This document shows positions 101 to 6,958 of a stretch of DNA of 10,130 bases, piece after piece; within the stretch, counting starts at the first letter, position 1, and every line of letters starts with the position of its first letter. The stretch lies in the UHGV virus genome UHGV-0074229. One strand, given 5' to 3'. The DNA comes from a virus. The notes below the pieces were generated by a model. The model saw only the letters and a list, made by a program, of their open reading frames with translations. It was not told where the DNA came from and did not search any database. A program made the translations under genes and the position numbers.

Positions 101-445
101 ATGCGTGATATGTATGAAGTATTGGACCGCTGGGGAGCATGGGCTGCAGCAGATAACAGTGGTGTGGATTGGCAACCGGTAGCCGCTGGCTTCAAGGGGC
201 TTTTACCTCATGGCAAAAAGTCCCGGATTCAGTGTGATGATGACGAAGGCATTATGATAGATAGTTGTGTGGCTCGGTTGCGCAAGTATAAACCAGAGGA
301 ATATGAGCTAATTATAGCTCATTTTGTTATTGGTATTTCGCTTAGAACTATTGCGAAGAAGCGAAAATGTTCGGACGGTACGATTAGAAAGGAATTGCAA
401 ACTGCTTTAGGTTTTATTGAAGGGTGTTTTTATTTCATAAAATAG
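101..445 (+). CDS. Q: Late-gene antitermination protein Q (phage 82 / QuuD-like family)
   Basis: Translation MRDMYEVLDRWGAWAA...AAGFKGL...SRIQCDDDEG...CSDGTIRKELQTALGFIEG matches the conserved blocks I recall for 82-type Q antiterminators (QuuD of DLP12). ATG at 101 is preceded by GGAGAAAG; the ORF track's position 86 is a TTG and probably not the start. It lies directly upstream of the lysis region as expected. Confidence 0.8.
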   Translation: MRDMYEVLDRWGAWAAADNSGVDWQPVAAGFKGLLPHGKKSRIQCDDDEGIMIDSCVARLRKYKPEEYELIIAHFVIGISLRTIAKKRKCSDGTIRKELQTALGFIEGCFYFIK

Positions 446-553
446 AAGTGCGAGTTTTTGTGGCTGGATTTTATATTGTGTGTTGTTTTTATATGTTTGA
501 AAATATATATGCGTGGCTAATGATTTTGGTATTGGTTGAGTAATAAACAAGAG

Positions 554-582
554 TTGTTAATAATATAATTTTTTGATAATAT
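554..582 (+). promoter_or_regulatory. Candidate sigma70 promoter (TTGTTA - 17 nt - TAATAT) downstream of Q; possible late promoter (PR'-like) or promoter of the small ORF
   Basis: -35-like hexamer at 554-559 and -10-like hexamer at 577-582 with 17-nt spacing. The AT-rich context makes chance matches likely. Confidence 0.25.
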
Positions 583-676
583 AAAATCACTCATCAATAA
601 TCATGATGAGAATTTTTTTAACATGACATTTATAAGTGATTTGTCTTTTATTTCTATATTTTACTAAGGAGTGTGC

Positions 677-856
677 ATGAATAAGAAACAAAGAATTAAT
701 TATTTTTATGATAAAACTACTTCTTGGAATTATTTAAATACCATTTTTCTTACCCAATATTTTATGGCATGTAGTATGAAAGCTAATTTGAAAATGACAA
801 AACCTAAAAAGACTAATGGGGTTTTAAATTCGAATTCCGGTAGTCAAGTTTTTTGA
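677..856 (+). CDS. Hypothetical small basic protein (59 aa)
   Basis: ATG at 677 is preceded by a strong Shine-Dalgarno AAGGAG (666-671) at 5-nt spacing. AT-rich, no recognisable domain, ends ~55 nt upstream of the hairpin at 912-938. Confidence 0.35.
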   Translation: MNKKQRINYFYDKTTSWNYLNTIFLTQYFMACSMKANLKMTKPKKTNGVLNSNSGSQVF

Positions 857-911
857 TAGGTAAATTCCTGCTCGTTTTAATTATTTGAGATATATTGCAG
901 CAGAGGTAGAG

Positions 912-938
912 AACCACCCTGTTACGGGTGGTTTTTAA
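912..938 (+). terminator. Intrinsic terminator hairpin (AACCACCC-tgttac-GGGTGGTT followed by TTTTTAATT), between convergent genes
   Basis: Perfect 8-bp GC-rich stem (912-919 / 926-933), 6-nt loop, then a T-run on the + strand. On the minus strand the hairpin follows the big gene's stop (960) but has no U-tract, so it is mainly a + strand terminator. Confidence 0.6.
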
Positions 939-959
939 TTATATCAAAAAAGTGGCATT

Positions 960-3900
960 TTAATGTCCTATGCGGTTTAACGTATTAAAGGCATCACTAA
1001 TCTTGGGTGTGAGAATTAATTTTCTTTTAATGCCAATGTTTTTTGCTAACTCTTTCAATGCTTCTTCTTCAGTTCTTTTTAAATCATAGTTACTTGTTAT
1101 AATTTGATTAATCTTGAAGAAAAGAGATTCTTGAACAACTTTGTTTTGTATCTTTGCTAAATCGTTAGCTAATTGTATAACCATTTCATCTTTAATATCC
1201 ATTAAGGTGAAAGTTAAAATAGCCTTTTCTACAGGATTGCTATTTGAGTCTTTTGATTCAGTAATAATGTTTGCAATACGTGGTTTTTTCGAGCTTAAGT
1301 CATTGCTCATAATAAACTGTATGTTATTTGGGATCATTGAGCGAACTAAAGACAATACTAGTTTAAACATTTCAAAAACTCGTTGTCTTTCGTTATCGGT
1401 TAATTTATCCTCTTGCATTTTCTTTTCTAATGCAGGGAGTATTACTGGAAGAACAAATGAATCATCCATTAGTACTAGTGACGCTTTCATGTAAAAAACA
1501 TAACCCTTTACAAGGTCATTAAATATATTTAATATATTTTCTCTTTCCATAGATAATTCAGTACTACGGAATACCCTTGCATAAAGAGATAAAGTGTTAA
1601 TAAGATCATGTAACAGATTATTATTACCTTCCGCTCTAACATTTGATATATTAGCTTTTTTATCTTTATCAGATAAAGGTGATAATTCATCTAGTCGCGC
1701 GTCATCTTTTTCTCTATCTGCACGGAGTGATTCTATCTTTTTTTCGAAATCATCTTGGGTTGATACCATATCTAAAATAGAGAAAGTATTAGAGTCTTCA
1801 ATCTTTATATCTTCAATATTTATTCCCTTATCTTCGAGCATTCGTTCAGATAAAGAAGATTTGATTGCATTAGTCTTCTTTTTAAGTAAGTATAATAAAT
1901 CAAGACTAGATGAGTTCTGCGATGAATAGTATTCAATAACTTTATGTAGATGTAGATAATTATTATCGGATAAAATTTCTTTCTTTAGCTCTTCGTTATG
2001 CTTCATGAAATAAGCGATGGAATAGTATAAAAAGCAAGGCTGCGAGAAAATCACATTACATAGCTCTTCTTTCAATATTCCACATTCTTTTAATGGTTTT
2101 ATATAGTCTTCTACTTGATAATCATGCATGGTATCTCTATTGAAAATTATTGCAGTCTGCAGAAGATCATTATTTGAAATAAAATTACATTTGTTTTTGA
2201 ATAATGTAAATCCTAAATATCCAAGAAAATGCCGAAGTTCTTTAAATTGTGGCTTATTAGGCGGAGTATCCATAAAATGTTTACGAAGCAAAATTTCTAT
2301 GAAGTTTTCTATAATATCAGACTCACTTAATATTCCTTTAACGTCATGATCAACTTCATAAATAGCTAAAAGCATTGAGTATGTAAAATAATTATGAGGA
2401 AGTTGCGAATTGTTGATTGTTCGCGTGATTTCTTTGTATATTATATTTTGTGATGTTGTGTCGTGCCATCTTGATACAATATCGCGAACATTAGATCTGC
2501 GTAATGAACCTATAGCAATTGCATGAAATTTAGCTTTGCTTTCATCTGATAATATTTTAACTACCAGATCTGAATTATTATAGCCAGCAGTTACGATAAA
2601 TCTACATTCTTTGAATTTTATAAAAAAATCAGAAATTACACATTGTTCTTTTGTATTTATATTGTCCAGATTATCAATATATATAACACATCTTCCCTCA
2701 TGTAACATTTTTTTAATTTTTTCTTCAAAAGATGTGGTCGAATCTGCATTGAAATATTGTGTACATAATGCGCTTACAATTGTATTTAAGCTATTTAATT
2801 CAATTGCATTTAAATCTAAGAAAAATGCAAAGTTACTGAAGTCTTTGCAGGCCTGTTTTTCTAGACTCTTAATGAATAGGTATTTTAAAAGAGATGTTTT
2901 ACCTGAGCTATGGTTTCCTACAATCACAAGGTTGTTTCGTCCTTCTAGTAATTCTTGTGTGGACTTAATCTCCATAGAAGGCATGGCTCCAAGAGCAAAT
3001 TCAAGGAAATTTGGTTCAGTAAATAGAGTTCTTAGACTTTTTTTCTTTTCATCAGAGATTCCAATGTTAATTAATAAATCCTTATCAGTTTTCTCTAGAA
3101 TCTCATTAGATAATGTTGCAAATTTTTCAGAGTCAAAAGTTAGAGTTTTCTCAGTGGTGAAATCAAAAACACCACCATTTCCTCTTTCTTCCCATGGTTC
3201 ATAGTATGTTTTTTCTTTATTATATTTTCTATAAAAAATTCTTCCGTCTGATATGACATTTGAACTATTAAAATTTATTAATGAATAGCCTGATACATTT
3301 TCACTAGTATCCAAAGTTCCTGCTTGCAAAAAGAGGGTGATGTTTTCACAAAAACTAGATTCTAGTTTTTGTTTAAAATCATGCATATGACCAAAAAAGA
3401 ACATTGAAACTTTTTTTTCAATAAATGTTGAAAAAATGTCACGATCATTCTTATTCAACCAATCTAAAGGATGATGGCATAATAATATTATTTTTGCATC
3501 AGAAGGTATTTTGGCACGATTGATAAAATCAATTTGCTTTTGGGTAATTCGTAAGTTACCAATATCATTATCATCCATAGCTAACCATGCGCTATTTACG
3601 CTAACGACGTATAATTTGTTTGTTACTTTAAAGCATGTAATCATGCGTCCAGATTGTTCAACATCAGAATGATGATCTAATATTGTTTTATTATATTCAC
3701 AGTACTCGTAGAGACGTTCCCATGAATACTCTCCATTATTTATCATATCAAAGTATGATGATATGAAATTTTCGTCCGAACCAGTTCGCAGTTGTTTTTC
3801 AAGTGGATGAACTTTACTTCTGTCCACATCATGATTGCCTGGGGTTATAAAAATGTTTTTTTTACTGATGTTCAGCTTTTGAATAAGTGGAGAGAGGAAA

Positions 3901-4112
3901 TGTTCATCAAATAGTTGAAATTGCTCTTTGGTTCCAGAAAACGTTAAATCCCCAGTAAAAAAAATGGCATCTATCTGGAGGTTGTTTTCTTTACTTAATG
4001 AATGTATATCATTAACTAATACTGTGACCAGTTCTTTGGCTTTCTTCCAGTGAAAACCATATTTTTTTGAGTCTGATAAGTGTAAGTCGGATAAGTGTAC
4101 AATTGATTTCAT
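960..4112 (-). CDS. Large multidomain protein (~1050 aa): N-terminal calcineurin-like metallophosphoesterase + central P-loop NTPase (STAND/AAA+-like) + C-terminal helical domain; candidate single-gene anti-phage defence protein
   Basis: Uninterrupted 3.18 kb ORF. Metallophosphoesterase motifs all present: D-x-H (VHLSDLH), GD (FFTGDLTF), GNHD (PGNHDV, + coords 3828-3839), H (LLCHHPL), GH-x-H (FFFGHMHD). Walker A GNHSSGKTS (+ coords 2892-2918), Walker B CVIYIDNLD (D at 2673-2675), sensor-1-like FIVTAG ~25 aa later. The track start at 4142 is a TTG; the ATG at 4112-4110 (MKSIVHLSDLH) with upstream AAAGGGAA is the likely start. Strongly AT-rich versus flanking phage genes. Confidence 0.85.
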   Translation of the reverse strand: MKSIVHLSDLHLSDSKKYGFHWKKAKELVTVLVNDIHSLSKENNLQIDAIFFTGDLTFSGTKEQFQLFDEHFLSPLIQKLNISKKNIFITPGNHDVDRSKVHPLEKQLRTGSDENFISSYFDMINNGEYSWERLYEYCEYNKTILDHHSDVEQSGRMITCFKVTNKLYVVSVNSAWLAMDDNDIGNLRITQKQIDFINRAKIPSDAKIILLCHHPLDWLNKNDRDIFSTFIEKKVSMFFFGHMHDFKQKLESSFCENITLFLQAGTLDTSENVSGYSLINFNSSNVISDGRIFYRKYNKEKTYYEPWEERGNGGVFDFTTEKTLTFDSEKFATLSNEILEKTDKDLLINIGISDEKKKSLRTLFTEPNFLEFALGAMPSMEIKSTQELLEGRNNLVIVGNHSSGKTSLLKYLFIKSLEKQACKDFSNFAFFLDLNAIELNSLNTIVSALCTQYFNADSTTSFEEKIKKMLHEGRCVIYIDNLDNINTKEQCVISDFFIKFKECRFIVTAGYNNSDLVVKILSDESKAKFHAIAIGSLRRSNVRDIVSRWHDTTSQNIIYKEITRTINNSQLPHNYFTYSMLLAIYEVDHDVKGILSESDIIENFIEILLRKHFMDTPPNKPQFKELRHFLGYLGFTLFKNKCNFISNNDLLQTAIIFNRDTMHDYQVEDYIKPLKECGILKEELCNVIFSQPCFLYYSIAYFMKHNEELKKEILSDNNYLHLHKVIEYYSSQNSSSLDLLYLLKKKTNAIKSSLSERMLEDKGINIEDIKIEDSNTFSILDMVSTQDDFEKKIESLRADREKDDARLDELSPLSDKDKKANISNVRAEGNNNLLHDLINTLSLYARVFRSTELSMERENILNIFNDLVKGYVFYMKASLVLMDDSFVLPVILPALEKKMQEDKLTDNERQRVFEMFKLVLSLVRSMIPNNIQFIMSNDLSSKKPRIANIITESKDSNSNPVEKAILTFTLMDIKDEMVIQLANDLAKIQNKVVQESLFFKINQIITSNYDLKRTEEEALKELAKNIGIKRKLILTPKISDAFNTLNRIGH

Positions 4113-4181
4113 GCTATTCCCTTTAAACAACAGGATTATCAAAAAATATTGCTTTTACATTTGGTGTGAGAAAGGTAAGTA

Positions 4182-4210
4182 ATTATAAAAAAATCTTAAC
4201 GCGTACGCAA
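4182..4210 (-). promoter_or_regulatory. Candidate sigma70 promoter for the large minus-strand gene (minus-strand TTGCGT - 17 nt - TATAAT)
   Basis: Consensus -10 TATAAT (+ coords 4182-4187 read as ATTATA) about 70 nt upstream of the ATG at 4112, with a weak -35 (+ coords 4205-4210). Confidence 0.3.
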
Positions 4211-4255
4211 AAAGTATTGTATCGTGTTAAGAGTGGTTACTTCGCCACACAGCTT

Positions 4256-4282
4256 AAACCCGCGTCGAGCGGGTTTTGTCGT
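4256..4282 (+). terminator. Intrinsic terminator hairpin (AAACCCGC-gtcga-GCGGGTTT followed by TGTCGTTTCT) upstream of the holin; possible late-leader (tR'-like) terminator
   Basis: 8-bp stem (4256-4263 / 4269-4276), 5-nt loop, U-rich tail on the + strand, ~150 nt upstream of the holin start. Confidence 0.5.
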
Positions 4283-4428
4283 TTCTGGGGCTGGGGATTC
4301 GTTGGTTCTGGCCTATTCCGCAGTTATCCATTGGTTCGGCTTCTTTGACGTTTCCGCTTCTGATTTGCGGTACATGATGTTCCCTCAATTTGCACCTGCT
4401 GTATCAGCGAGGTGAGAGATAACTACAA

Positions 4429-4755
4429 ATGCCTCATAACCCAAATACCTGGTTGGAGTTGGTCCAGAGCTGGTGGCGTGGAGACACACCGCTGGGCGCA
4501 GTGATTATGTCGATCGTTATGGCTGGTTTGCGCATTGCCTATTTTGGCGGTGGTGGTGGCTGGAAGCGAAAAACACTCGAAATTCTACTCTGTGGCGCTC
4601 TGACGCTGACTTTTGCATCCGCTCTTGAGTATGTCGGATGGCCTAAATCGCTTTCTGTTGCCATTGGTGGTGGCGTTGGGTTGATCGGTGTCGATGCTAT
4701 TCGTGGGGCTGCAATGAGAGTAATCGGTAATAAGTTTGGTGGCTCTAAGGAGTAA
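4429..4755 (+). CDS. Holin (class I-like, three predicted transmembrane segments)
   Basis: 107-aa protein immediately upstream of the endolysin. Three hydrophobic segments (GAVIMSIVMAGLRIAYF, LEILLCGALTLTFASALEYVGW, LSVAIGGGVGLIGVDAI) and a charged C-terminus. SD GAGGTGAGAG upstream of the ATG. Confidence 0.7.
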   Translation: MPHNPNTWLELVQSWWRGDTPLGAVIMSIVMAGLRIAYFGGGGGWKRKTLEILLCGALTLTFASALEYVGWPKSLSVAIGGGVGLIGVDAIRGAAMRVIGNKFGGSKE

Positions 4756-4758
4756 TTT

Positions 4759-5235
4759 ATGCAGGTACTAAATTCCCAGCGTAAAGCTTTCCTCGATATG
4801 GTGGCATGGTCAGAAGGAACGGATAACGGACGGCAGAAAACCAGAAATCATGGTTATGACGTCATTGTAGGCGGAGAGCTATTTACTGATTACTCCGATC
4901 ACCCTCGCAAACTTGTCACGCTAAACCCCAAACTCAAATCAACAGCAGCCGGGCGCTACCAGCTTCTTTCCCGTTGGTGGGATTCCTATCGTAAGCAGCT
5001 TGGCCTGAAAGACTTCTCTCCGAAAAGCCAGGACGCTGTGGCACTGCAACAGATTAAAGAGCGTGGCGCTTTACCGATGATTGATCGCGGTGATATTCGT
5101 CAGGCTATCGACCGTTGCAGCAATATCTGGGCTTCACTGCCGGGCGCTGGTTACGGTCAGTATGAACATAGAATCGGTGACCTGATTGCCCGATTTAAAG
5201 AGGCTGGTGGGGTGGTAAATGAAGTTGAGTTATAA
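4759..5235 (+). CDS. R: Endolysin, lambda R-type lytic transglycosylase
   Basis: 158-aa translation is near-identical over most of its length to lambda R as I recall it (NSQRKAFLDMVAWSEGTDNGRQKTRNHGYDVIVGGELFTDYSDHPRKLVTLNPKLKST...), including the catalytic Glu in WSEGT. RBS AAGGAG 7 nt upstream. Confidence 0.92.
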   Translation: MQVLNSQRKAFLDMVAWSEGTDNGRQKTRNHGYDVIVGGELFTDYSDHPRKLVTLNPKLKSTAAGRYQLLSRWWDSYRKQLGLKDFSPKSQDAVALQQIKERGALPMIDRGDIRQAIDRCSNIWASLPGAGYGQYEHRIGDLIARFKEAGGVVNEVEL

Positions 5236-5611
5236 GTTGGCTATCTCTGCTTTCTTCTTTACTGTCATTGGCTCTTTCATCTGGTCAGCGAATTACTACT
5301 ACAGCAAATATCAGCATGAAAAGAAACGTGCTGATGAGGCTGTACAAAATGCTGAATCGGCAACTGCCATTACCAATAACGTCCTGCAATCAATACAAAT
5401 CGTAAATACAGTTCTGGAGGCTAACCAGCATGCAAAACAGCAGATCGCACTGGAGTCACAGAGAACCCAGGAAGATATCAAAGTGGCTGTTGAGAATGAT
5501 GATTGCGCTTCCCGTCTTGTTCCTGCTCGTGCAACTGAGCGGCTGCGCCGGTACGCGGACAATTTACGTGCCAGTTCCGGCGGTACCACTACCGGCGAAC
5601 CTGACCGCTGA
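5219..5611 (+). CDS. Rz: Rz-like inner-membrane spanin (i-spanin)
   Basis: Start overlaps the end of R. N-terminal TM segment (LAISAFFFTVIGSFIW) followed by a charged, Gln/Ala-rich helical region. Position after the endolysin and an embedded lipoprotein ORF in another frame are typical of Rz. Confidence 0.65.
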   Translation: MKLSYKLAISAFFFTVIGSFIWSANYYYSKYQHEKKRADEAVQNAESATAITNNVLQSIQIVNTVLEANQHAKQQIALESQRTQEDIKVAVENDDCASRLVPARATERLRRYADNLRASSGGTTTGEPDR

Positions 5612-5753
5612 AACCCCACAGCCAGCTATTCCTGATCCGCTGACTTACAAAGATAGTCTGGATTTAAACGTGAGCCTGCTGTCAGTGCTGGCTGCCTGTA
5701 ATAGGGATAAGGCTGATATTCGTAAAATTGAAGCAGAGAAGAGTGAGCCATGA
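5496..5753 (+). CDS. Rz1: Rz1-like outer-membrane lipoprotein spanin (o-spanin), overlapping Rz in a different frame
   Basis: Signal peptide with lipobox (MMIALPVLFLLVQLSGC) and a proline-rich mature region (YVPVPAVPLPANLTAETPQPAIPDP). It starts inside Rz but runs ~140 nt beyond the Rz stop. Confidence 0.65.
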   Translation: MMIALPVLFLLVQLSGCAGTRTIYVPVPAVPLPANLTAETPQPAIPDPLTYKDSLDLNVSLLSVLAACNRDKADIRKIEAEKSEP

Positions 5754-5947
5754 AGCAGTAAAGTGGAAAGACCGCAGCAAGAAGTGCCTGTTCAGCATTA
5801 ATGAAGATGTCCAAAATACCTAAAATAGCGAGTAGCCACATGCACGTCAACTACGAGCGTGTGGCCAGCATAACGTTGTATAAACTAAGTGATAGCAGAG
5901 CTCAATATACGTATACTGAGAGAACTATTTCTATTTGAGAACTGAAA

Positions 5948-6541
5948 ATGACGGACTATACTTTTTTTTACTGGATAGAGATGCTTCTTAAAGAAGGCAA
6001 TGTTTTATTTATTGTTCTTGCTTGTTTGATTGTCTTTTTTACTTTAAAAAAAGAAATAATAATGGTTTTAGGTCGTCTTAATACAGTTAAGCTAGGTGAC
6101 TATGAGATTAAATTTAAAAAAGAAATGTTTGAAATAGAATCTAAAAGTATAGAGGTTATTAAAAATTTACCTGGAACAAATCCTGTCCTGCCGACACAAC
6201 TCATTGAGAATTTCAATATTTTTGAGAGTCTTGCTAGTACTCAGCCTAATGTTGCTGTACTTTCAGCTTGGCGCGAATTGGAGTTAACCGCTATAACGCT
6301 TGCATCTAAAAAGGGGATTGAGATCAACGGGACATCTTTAGGGCGGGCTTCAGGTATCGCTGCCTTGAAAAATGTCCAATCTGCAAACAAAATTTCTAGT
6401 GACATTGTTAAGCTCTATGAAAAAACAGGAGAGTCTATTAAGCCTATATCCCAAGGAAAGCTCTTATGTACTCAGGAAGATGCTTTGGCATTCTGTAAGA
6501 ATGCAAAAAGACTTAGCAATTATTTAACATCCATATTTTAG
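5948..6541 (+). CDS. Hypothetical membrane-anchored protein (197 aa), AT-rich cargo gene
   Basis: Long ORF with N-terminal hydrophobic segment (VLFIVLACLIVFFTL) and a ~150-aa soluble domain. AT-rich codon usage unlike the flanking phage genes. No recognised motif. Confidence 0.5.
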   Translation: MTDYTFFYWIEMLLKEGNVLFIVLACLIVFFTLKKEIIMVLGRLNTVKLGDYEIKFKKEMFEIESKSIEVIKNLPGTNPVLPTQLIENFNIFESLASTQPNVAVLSAWRELELTAITLASKKGIEINGTSLGRASGIAALKNVQSANKISSDIVKLYEKTGESIKPISQGKLLCTQEDALAFCKNAKRLSNYLTSIF

Positions 6542-6583
6542 TATGTATCCATAGAGCATCCATTATTATTGGAGTAGTCGTTA

Positions 6584-6610
6584 CAGCAGGCATTCACTGA
6601 GTGCCTGCTG
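6584..6610. other. Inverted repeat / hairpin (CAGCAGGCA-ttcactgag-TGCCTGCTG) between convergent ORFs; possible factor-independent terminator lacking a U-tract
   Basis: Perfect 9-bp stem between the stop of the 197-aa ORF (6541) and the stop of the minus-strand 70-aa ORF (6618). Confidence 0.3.
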
Positions 6611-6617
6611 CTGAACT

Positions 6618-6830
6618 CTAATAGCAAGATGGAGAATCTGCATTAAATTTTTGAGAGAGATTACTTATTTCATTCACTCCCTTATGATTAAGTAATCGCC
6701 TAATATTTTCTGGAGCCTTGAATATAAATGGGCCTTTTAGATCCTCGATGATTCCTCCTGCGACGCAGATCAAATGCTTGAAATCAACATCTTCAATTGT
6801 GGGCTTGGAGTCCAGATTATCGCTTGTCAT
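6618..6830 (-). CDS. Hypothetical small protein (70 aa)
   Basis: Minus-strand ORF with a good RBS (AAAGGA ~9 nt upstream of ATG at 6830). AT-rich, no recognised motif. Confidence 0.35.
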   Translation of the reverse strand: MTSDNLDSKPTIEDVDFKHLICVAGGIIEDLKGPFIFKAPENIRRLLNHKGVNEISNLSQKFNADSPSCY

Positions 6831-6958
6831 TTAAAAACATCCTTTCTTGCCATTAGCAGCATTGAGCATGTTATGGAATCTGTAATTTAGGATGCTGGTA
6901 CTACCAGTATTTTTTTGTTTCATTTTGTGTATCACCTCATTTACGAGGGGAGCCTATC

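Follow-up and report, generated by a model that had tools for sequence, protein, structure and literature searches.

The cassettes of the phage late-gene antiterminator Q generally combine a constitutive promoter, PR', with an early terminator, tR', and with read-through of that terminator that depends on Q. In the DLP12 (qsr') prophage of Escherichia coli K-12, the Q gene quuD is followed by the opposite-strand gene nmpC, by a short promoter-terminator module, and then by the lysis genes essD-rrrD-rzpD, an order also found in phage 434B. In the 933W-like Stx phages, PR' overlaps the Q stop codon, and the late strand carries tRNA genes and stx beyond tR', in a position that makes them Q dependent. 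The subject here is the UHGV virus genome UHGV-0074229, a stretch of 10,130 nucleotides ("the window" below means all of it), which carries a large AT-rich block between its Q gene and its holin gene. We regard it as quite probable that this is the late-control region of a lambdoid phage where an exchangeable cargo slot has come between Q and its own target, the slot being occupied in this case by a candidate anti-phage gene. Antisense cargo between Q and PR' (DLP12), the PR'-tR' pair (Stx phages), and the candidate family of the cargo protein are known already; what is new is the finding of this cassette in the slot, the regularities of strand and terminator, and a small companion open reading frame (ORF). 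No published description of a Q-to-PR' slot was found in the literature searched, though an earlier one is possible.

How does the window compare with these systems? Its elements come in the order Q, terminator, opposite-strand cargo, predicted cargo promoter and PR' back to back, leader with tR', holin, and late operon (Table 1). As in DLP12, there is a Q of family PF06530, an antisense cargo, and a module, GTTAAGAGTGGTTACTTCG...AAACCCGCC..GCGGGTTT, directly upstream of the holin. Unlike in DLP12, where the cargo is a porin gene that has a long region upstream of it and that IS5 interrupts in K-12, the cargo is a candidate defence gene, and the Q subtype, promoter spacer, and lysis cassette are different too. 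With junctions at 428-438 and 4176-4197, the block belongs to the DLP12 nmpC type of antisense slot between Q and PR'. It had been assigned in the original prediction to the position equivalent to that of stx, but the cargo ends at ~4190, upstream of PR', and lies on the minus strand, so that it differs from an stx-type moron (accessory gene) on both counts. Stx2a_1447 makes the distinction plain, as it carries antisense cargo before the module and stx2AB after it. The AT-rich nature of the block is real (G+C fraction 0.296 for 446-4190, versus 0.438 for 1-445 and 0.486 for 4191-5850), and its main gene does run against late transcription.

The argument hinges on the 85 bp at 4196-4280, which alignment with annotated phages identifies as the putative late promoter and terminator cognate to Q, that is, PR'-tR'. 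The window's PR' aligns with TTTACG-16-TATCAT, the "putative late promoter PR'" of KR781488, a 933W-like Stx phage, and both PR' and tR' align with features annotated as "Promoter" and "Terminator" in PV189402. In the 933W-like phages the aligned region sits at the Q stop codon. The leader, GTTAAGAGTGGTTACTTCGCCACACAGCTT, has one exact match in the window, with 0 expected by chance; its first 13 bases are near-invariant, and the remainder is conserved in most of 61 module variants, including those of 933W-like phages and DLP12. From this alignment we infer a late transcription start near 4232. The hairpin at 4256-4276, AAACCCGC-GTCGA-GCGGGTTT followed by TGTCGTTTCT, is the highest terminator-like hit of the window scan; more than 100 related loci retain it, varying chiefly in the loop while the stems are almost invariant; 4230-4285 as a whole folds with -20.6 kcal/mol (z -3.1). 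The module lies 149 nt upstream of the holin ATG. Ahead of the lysis genes there is thus a predicted promoter with an intrinsic terminator at the usual distance of about 50-200 nt, while PR' does not directly follow the Q gene, the two being 3750 bp apart. Adjacency of Q and PR' is, however, a descriptive and not a mechanistic trait. In DLP12 and 434B the two are likewise separated.

Does the module belong with Q or with the lysis genes beside it? The strain EC71 matches the window through Q and the cargo up to exactly 4277, after which come tRNA genes and a different lysis cassette, and the homology of Stx phages to the window stops at the same nucleotide and gives way to other downstream genes. 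In Stx2a_1447, Q is separated from the module by two antisense cargo genes, and a methylase gene, ileZ-argN-argO, and stx2AB come after the module. Both arrangements argue that the module travels with Q and not with the holin, and that stx is downstream of it. The 434B phage record contains the whole DLP12 segment, Q-nmpC::IS5-module-lysis, which indicates that Q works across 2.9 kb and that a phage can grow with Q and PR' kilobases apart. Among the 61 variants, the TAnnnT hexamer before GTTAAGAG is mostly kept, though its inner bases vary, and the spacer between -35 and -10 (ACGCGTACGC in the window) changes together with the Q subtype. Because of this covariation, the spacer is a candidate Q-binding element. 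An TAACGCGTACGC...TAnnnT element also adjoins the start of the large gene in the related cassettes of Citrobacter, Enterobacter, and Rahnella.

The module varies in other ways that deserve mention. Only the 1720a-02 type (locus L005, 3479-3520) shows a clean direct repeat of 8 bp in its promoter spacer, AGTATGTC AGTATGTT, which is the form described for the Q-binding element of Q21; no clean direct repeat was seen in the promoter spacer of the window's Q subtype. In 20 DLP12-type loci of IMG/VR (L096 and 19 others), the tR' stem has GCTGG for GCGGG (equivalent to window 4270-4274), a stem mismatch that may make the terminator of these nmpC-type prophages leaky.

Where else could the late promoter be? 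Under the first of two possibilities raised in the original prediction, it would lie just downstream of Q (at 497-601, with the hairpin at 590-617 as a mini-terminator), and antisense read-through of ~3.3 kb would silence the defence gene at lysis. Textbook cassettes do have PR' directly after Q, there are three promoter-like sites and a hairpin with a T run within 497-617, and the hairpins at 912 and 4256 both face the plus strand. Promoter-like matches in the window are nevertheless at chance level (25 found versus 22.6 expected), and the 590-610 hairpin is weak (z -1.6). Region 446-965 occurs with this cassette only (in 16 of 5426 complete E. coli genomes), though at least 12 other cassettes are found with a Q protein that is nearly identical, and so it cannot be the qut site. 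In many cassettes the cargo also ends just 3-30 nt from the Q stop, which leaves no room for a promoter next to Q, and the module beside the lysis genes matches annotated PR'/tR' elements. We consider a Q-proximal promoter very improbable. It is the second possibility, a late promoter within 4143-4255 and a Q gene cut off from its target, that agrees with the position of PR', ~3.75 kb away.

Another possibility is that the module comprises a leader and terminator only, with the promoter borne by the cassette or located further upstream, and that the TAnnnT hexamer at 4220-4225 is a sigma-dependent pause element. A conserved -10-like hexamer within a conserved leader does resemble such an element, the -35 of PR' is poor, and a weak alignment to the RNA isrK at 4203-4279 would suit a start near 4203. 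Yet there is no conservation between cassettes upstream of ~4196, where empty-site phages have Q coding sequence, and conservation begins exactly at the proposed -35. DLP12-type modules have a respectable promoter (TTTACA/TTTACG-16-TATGCT), the 933W-type annotation takes the same hexamers, and the isrK alignment is far under its gathering score (E 0.46). We therefore think a promoterless module improbable and retain 4196-4225 as the predicted PR'.

Several observations nonetheless count against this assignment. The annotations that anchor PR' carry the GenBank label "putative." The -35 is weak, being TTAACG with an 18-nt spacer in the window and CTAACG in most relatives, and the spacer is 19 nt in modules of the GGTCCGC type. 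Neither a sigma-dependent pause element nor a Q-binding repeat was identified in the window, and the Q21 paradigm needs both. Finally, Sy et al. predict a PR'-tR' RNA of 258 nt and detect a species of 74 nt in the Stx phages of strain Sakai, unlike the ~50-nt RNA implied by the window alignment; a different reading of the start site or of the first terminator in the Sakai phages may account for this.

A number of other candidates for these elements were considered and set aside. The scan of 4100-4450 against Rfam gave sub-threshold matches only. One of these, to isrK, is full length but weak (4203-4279; 15.4 bits, E 0.46, gathering score 50) and was rejected as evidence for the module. IsrK is a short terminated RNA made directly downstream of antQ, the Q-like gene of Gifsy-1, and may be the Salmonella counterpart of the PR'-tR' RNA. 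A plus-strand -10 in the semi-conserved AT-rich DNA at 4180-4195 was rejected in favour of a minus-strand reading, as its hexamers lack the final T and are inconsistently spaced. For DLP12 a "+1" has been published, which reportedly belongs to a sigma-E promoter, as Rueggeberg is said to have found in 2015. It was rejected as PR', since the primers given in PMC7918800 place it ~350 nt upstream of the module, near nmpC. The paper on the Pas/STnc100 small RNA was likewise rejected as a description of the module, as it concerns a Q of the PF03589 type.

What separates Q from PR' appears to be exchangeable. Prophages with the same Q (89-93% amino acid identity) have window positions 1-~430 and ~4180 onward in common with different cargo in between; examples with the same Q subtype and unrelated genes between the flanks are the O103 strains, H22, SfII, SfV, and Stx2a_1447. 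This supports the view of the block as an exchangeable insert, as the original prediction had it. Comparison of these prophages yielded both junctions and located PR'. The left one falls inside the 3' end of Q, since the final ~10 Q residues vary between cassettes. An empty site for the window's Q subtype was not found among the prophages compared. Phages in which Q directly abuts the module carry a different Q subtype (~70% nucleotide identity); in two of these empty sites, 1720a-02 and PhiR49_2, the Q stop directly abuts a stretch homologous to 4186-4277.

A scan of IMG/VR for GTTAAGAGTGGTTACTTCG returned 120 loci; as these were chosen by the presence of the module, their occupancy frequencies are not population estimates. 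A PF06530-family Q lies upstream of the module in 105 of them. Empty sites, in which only 38-44 bp separate the Q stop from GTTAAGAG, make up 7 of these loci; elsewhere the gap measures 0.6-3.8 kb. The filled gaps form 28 sequence clusters with G+C fractions of 0.30-0.46. In 27 of these clusters every sizeable ORF lies opposite to the Q strand, for which the binomial probability is ~1e-7 by our arithmetic. The sole exception, L017 (5 loci), has a 214-amino-acid ORF in the same orientation as Q, and the promoter region of its module, TGTTATAACAAAAATGCTATTAGTGT, is atypical too. The most common cargo is the nmpC porin (45 loci). Others match PDC-M53A, PDC-S20 (a KAP NTPase), an OLD-like ATPase with a Dcm methylase, and NCBIfam DS-1 proteins, and further cargos, annotated in E. 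coli genomes, are KwaB-like, a Clp-fold protease, and a nuclease; several cassettes had no match in PADLOC or NCBIfam. The literature searched gave no origin for the "DS-n" names. A strong hairpin, often flanked by A and T runs, separates the Q stop from the cargo's 3' end in about 20 of the 28 cassettes.

The hairpins at both ends of the window's block, with U tracts facing the plus strand, are real (909-936 and 4256-4276). Only the left one lies in the block, whereas the right one is conserved phage sequence, namely the predicted tR'. Nor do they form matched insulators: the right terminator would be overridden by Q, and the left one would separate convergent transcription. A Q-side terminator and tR' are, by their recurrence across cassettes, general features of the slot with different jobs. 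The left hairpin, GAGAACCACCC-TGTTAC-GGGTGGTTTTT followed by AATT, has a U tract on the plus strand only and folds with -17.2 kcal/mol (z -3.6; 2 of 200 shuffles fold equally well). The consensus scan overlooked it because greedy stem extension absorbs the T run. Equivalents are present in the homologous cassettes.

The main gene of the block encodes a protein of 1050 amino acids from the ATG called by PGAP at 4112, though the ORF listing extends to a TTG at 4142. It has a metallophosphoesterase domain (Metallophos PF00149, residues 13-255, E 1.3e-11), a NACHT domain (PF05729, residues 405-561, 27.7 bits versus a cut-off of 26.7), and an nSTAND_NTPase4 match under its 27-bit cut-off (residues 654-707, 24.9 bits). 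All five phosphoesterase motifs (DLH, GD, GNHD, HH, and GHMH) are intact in the translation, as are Walker A (GNHSSGKT) and Walker B (VIYIDNLD). The protein matches PADLOC PDC-S60 from residue 14 to 1039, covering profile positions 3-1001 of 1027 (E 1.4e-97). PDC entries in PADLOC are computational candidates. PDC-S60 is, to our knowledge, one such candidate family, and no paper on it was found. The NCBIfam equivalog DS8_antiphage (NF053861) also matches end to end (E 2.3e-50), but with 171 bits against a cut-off of 790, so that the protein is a relative of DS-8 and not a member. On the strength of these matches it is a candidate anti-phage protein, and by analogy with other STAND defence proteins it probably senses a component of the infecting phage and answers with a phosphoesterase or nuclease activity.

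Proteins of this ~1050-residue family are widespread. In Citrobacter, Enterobacter, and Rahnella, the genes of homologues with 57-64% identity are flanked by a PF06530 Q and a holin and run on the opposite strand, while those with 37-48% identity in Proteus, Pectobacterium, Aeromonas, and Oleiphilus are located elsewhere, at a prophage end or in the chromosome. Could the block then be ancestral? In part: homologous cassettes in the same slot of other genera mark it as an old resident of this slot family and not a one-off insertion, and prophages with the same Q carry other cargo instead. A tblastn search with the cargo protein found no match in isolated phages and only relatives with 22-30% identity in plasmids. 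One Citrobacter prophage with a homologous defence cassette aboard (contig L133) also has Colicin (PF01024) and Microcin (PF03526) genes in its early region, at 11303-12936.

The second gene of the cassette had been overlooked. In the left 0.5 kb, an ORF of 59 amino acids lies on the plus strand and is ended by the left terminator. ORFs of 55-64 amino acids on the Q strand with good ribosome-binding sites are found in all four distinct Q-slot cassettes compared (window, Citrobacter, Enterobacter, and Rahnella), each with an intrinsic terminator after the small ORF and just before the 3' end of the large gene. The window and Rahnella ORFs are 39% identical (pairwise E 3e-8); those of Citrobacter and Enterobacter have only position and a short N-terminal motif in common, and BLASTP produced no alignment of Citrobacter with Enterobacter or of the window with Enterobacter. 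Homology of the small ORFs thus appears to rest on the window-Rahnella pair and on conserved position. A database of 5.8 billion proteins contained only one 95%-identical cluster, presumably copies of the same ORF, and the four distant homologues outside the slot have no comparable small ORF. In Citrobacter, the ORF lies only 35 nt after Q. Being on the Q transcript, the small ORF is positioned to be produced upon induction and lytic growth. By analogy with the Tha/Ith pair of Staphylococcus aureus prophages it might act as an induction-coupled off-switch for the defence protein and so spare the prophage from its own sensor, but we consider this role doubtful. A palindrome, CTCATCA-N7-TGATGAG, overlaps the -10 of the promoter-like site at 573-610, ~70 nt upstream of the small ORF, and its hairpin is weak (-7.8 kcal/mol, z -1.6). 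The site could be the small ORF's own promoter and operator or a chance occurrence, such matches being common in AT-rich DNA.

It is also conceivable that the cargo provides some other lysogenic-conversion function, as the nmpC porin does, and that the small ORF arose by chance. The porin is, after all, the cargo most often seen in the slot, the protein falls under the DS-8 cut-off, and the database search returned for the small ORF only what are presumably its own copies. Such an account has to contend with the full-length PDC-S60 match (E 1e-97), with the combination of phosphoesterase effector and NACHT/STAND NTPase, which is the architecture of known anti-phage NLR-like proteins, and with the named anti-phage proteins among other alleles of the slot. 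The small ORF, for its part, has kept its position in four cassettes, and one pair is homologous. We judge this alternative unlikely and continue to treat the cargo as a candidate defence gene with a companion.

How might the cargo be transcribed? A leftward promoter overlapping PR' is, in our estimate, an even bet. It has a perfect TATAAT, and its TTGCGT lies inside the conserved module. Of 13 cassettes with this Q subtype, 12 have a TAnnnT hexamer 17-18 nt from TTGCGT, against a background of 10% in neighbouring AT-rich DNA. With the first start codon of the cargo just 72-127 nt away from GTTAAGAG, there is hardly space for any other cargo promoter. On the other side, the leftward pattern holds for one Q subtype and is weak or absent with others and in other genera, and it may partly reflect common ancestry, as the stretch is partly homologous among the 13 cassettes. 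PR' and the predicted cargo promoter are divergent, each with its -35 inside the spacer of the other and with starts ~57 bp apart. Occupancy of such interdigitated promoters might be mutually exclusive, which would link expression of the defence gene to the state of the late promoter; like the off-switch role of the small ORF, we consider this doubtful.

Putting these elements together, the region is proposed to work as follows. (i) In the lysogen, PR' would fire constitutively and stop at tR', while the defence gene would be transcribed leftward from its own promoter overlapping PR'. (ii) Upon induction, Q made from the early transcript would act in trans at PR'; as Q is a diffusible protein, it could still load onto polymerase that started there, and with Q aboard the polymerase would pass tR' and go on to transcribe the lysis and structural genes. 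(iii) The terminator at 909-940 would end the transcript of Q and the small ORF before it enters the defence gene in antisense. The 3.75 kb between Q and PR' would thus lie outside the late transcript, with Q-modified polymerase starting downstream of the cargo, and late transcription would not cross the defence gene because the latter lies between Q and PR'. The cassette itself would consist of two genes, a STAND sensor with an N-terminal phosphoesterase effector and the 59-residue ORF on the Q strand, and would be exchanged by recombination in the conserved flanks, which are the 3' end of Q to its left and, to its right, the PR' module.

Table 1. Features of the UHGV-0074229 window around the Q-to-PR' slot
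Feature	Position	Strand	Details
Late-gene antiterminator Q, 114 amino acids	101..445	+	Q21/QuuD-type family; PF06530
Left recombination junction, within last codons of Q	428..445	+	Homology to other prophages stops at 428-438
Promoter-like site, uncertain	573..610	+	TTGATA-17-AATAAT; top window score, 10 of 12
59-amino-acid ORF on Q strand	677..856	+	Ribosome-binding site AAGGAG 5 nt upstream; PGAP-annotated
Predicted intrinsic terminator of Q-strand transcript	909..940	+	Hairpin and U tract; between convergent small ORF and candidate defence gene
1050-amino-acid candidate defence protein	960..4112	-	Metallophosphoesterase, NACHT/STAND NTPase, and C-terminal region of unknown fold; domain matches
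Right edge of variable block	about 4176-4197		
Predicted defence-gene promoter	4182..4210	-	-35 TTGCGT 4210..4205, 17 nt, -10 TATAAT 4187..4182
Putative late promoter PR'	4196..4225	+	-35 TTAACG 4196-4201, 18-nt spacer, -10 TATCGT 4220-4225
Near-invariant leader	4226..4255	+	Small 5' hairpin GUGGU..GCCAC; predicted start ~4231-4233
Putative tR', terminator overridden by Q	4256..4282	+	Hairpin and T-rich tail
Holin, lambda family	4429-4755	+	PF05106; start of lysis cassette 4429..5753
GH24 endolysin	4759-5235	+	Lysis cassette
Rz	5219-5611	+	Lysis cassette
Rz1/LysC	5430-5753	+	Lysis cassette; the cassette holds the first late genes

The E. coli strain 300033 carries a prophage that is 100% identical to the window and in which torI, yfdPQR, repressor/cro, RusA, KilA-N, DUF968, and Q are followed by the cargo, holin, endolysin, Rz/Rz1, a second small moron, HNH, terminase, and a Mu/P2-like tail. 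Its Q matches PF06530 across 111 of 118 profile positions (E 1.2e-45) and phrog_79 (E 3.6e-47), is labelled "antiterminator Q family protein" by PGAP, and is a distant match to the Q21 structure 6p18 (E 0.0017). The second moron is also AT-rich (5851-6900, G+C fraction 0.36) and lies between Rz/Rz1 and HNH-terminase. It encodes a protein of 197 amino acids (5948-6541, plus strand) that matches phrog_30030, of unknown function, and has no match in Pfam, PADLOC, or NCBIfam. The Tai tail-assembly-inhibition systems were reported from a comparable site, "upstream of the packaging module" (PMC11364771); that paper concerns a different hotspot and was rejected as a source for the Q-to-PR' slot. In locus L001 (NZ_CM128588.1), frameshifts or internal stops are annotated in DUF968, tail sheath, DNA circularisation, and baseplate genes (11095-12083 and 21836-28655), which reflect either a defective prophage in that strain or indel errors in the assembly.

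What does this arrangement mean for reading related genomes? In hundreds of prophage regions of this kind, the conserved 85 bp upstream of the lysis genes can now be read as a probable PR'-tR'. Accessory genes between Q and the module would be expressed in the lysogen independently of Q, and those downstream, such as stx, would depend on Q, so that the side of the module on which a gene lies would decide whether it is expressed in healthy lysogens or only on induction. The flanks, the 3' end of Q and GTTAAGAGTGGTTAC, offer a handle for harvesting candidate defence cassettes from enterobacterial genomes. The window also suggests two ideas on how a prophage could avoid its own immunity, through a small companion ORF or through overlapping divergent promoters.

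Among described systems, the 933W-like Stx phages have homologous promoter hexamers, leader, and first terminator, and the window differs from them in having its accessory genes on the other strand and ahead of PR', where they would be Q independent. The Q21 paradigm has a distant relative of the window's Q and the same logic of constitutive promoter, early terminator, and Q read-through. The defence hotspots of P2 and P4 (Rousset et al. 2022, PMC9122126) and the accessory sites of lambdoid phages likewise hold many alternative AT-rich anti-phage cassettes at a fixed position; unlike the P2/P4 hotspots, this slot lies between a trans-acting regulator and its cis target and obeys a strand rule in 27 of 28 clusters. 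As to the cargo, PDC-S60/DS-8, the bacterial NACHT (NLR-like) proteins, and Avs-type STAND proteins have, like it, an N-terminal effector, a central NTPase, and a presumed C-terminal sensor, although the DS-8 score marks a relative and not an equivalog. The closest parallel for the companion is the Tha/Ith pair of Staphylococcus aureus prophages, in which ith, a small opposite-strand gene that overlaps tha, has been shown to inhibit Tha and so protects the prophage (PMC11087260). Here too a prophage defence gene is paired with a small opposite-strand gene that could switch immunity off at induction, but the small ORF of the window, unlike ith, is convergent and non-overlapping, with a terminator in between.

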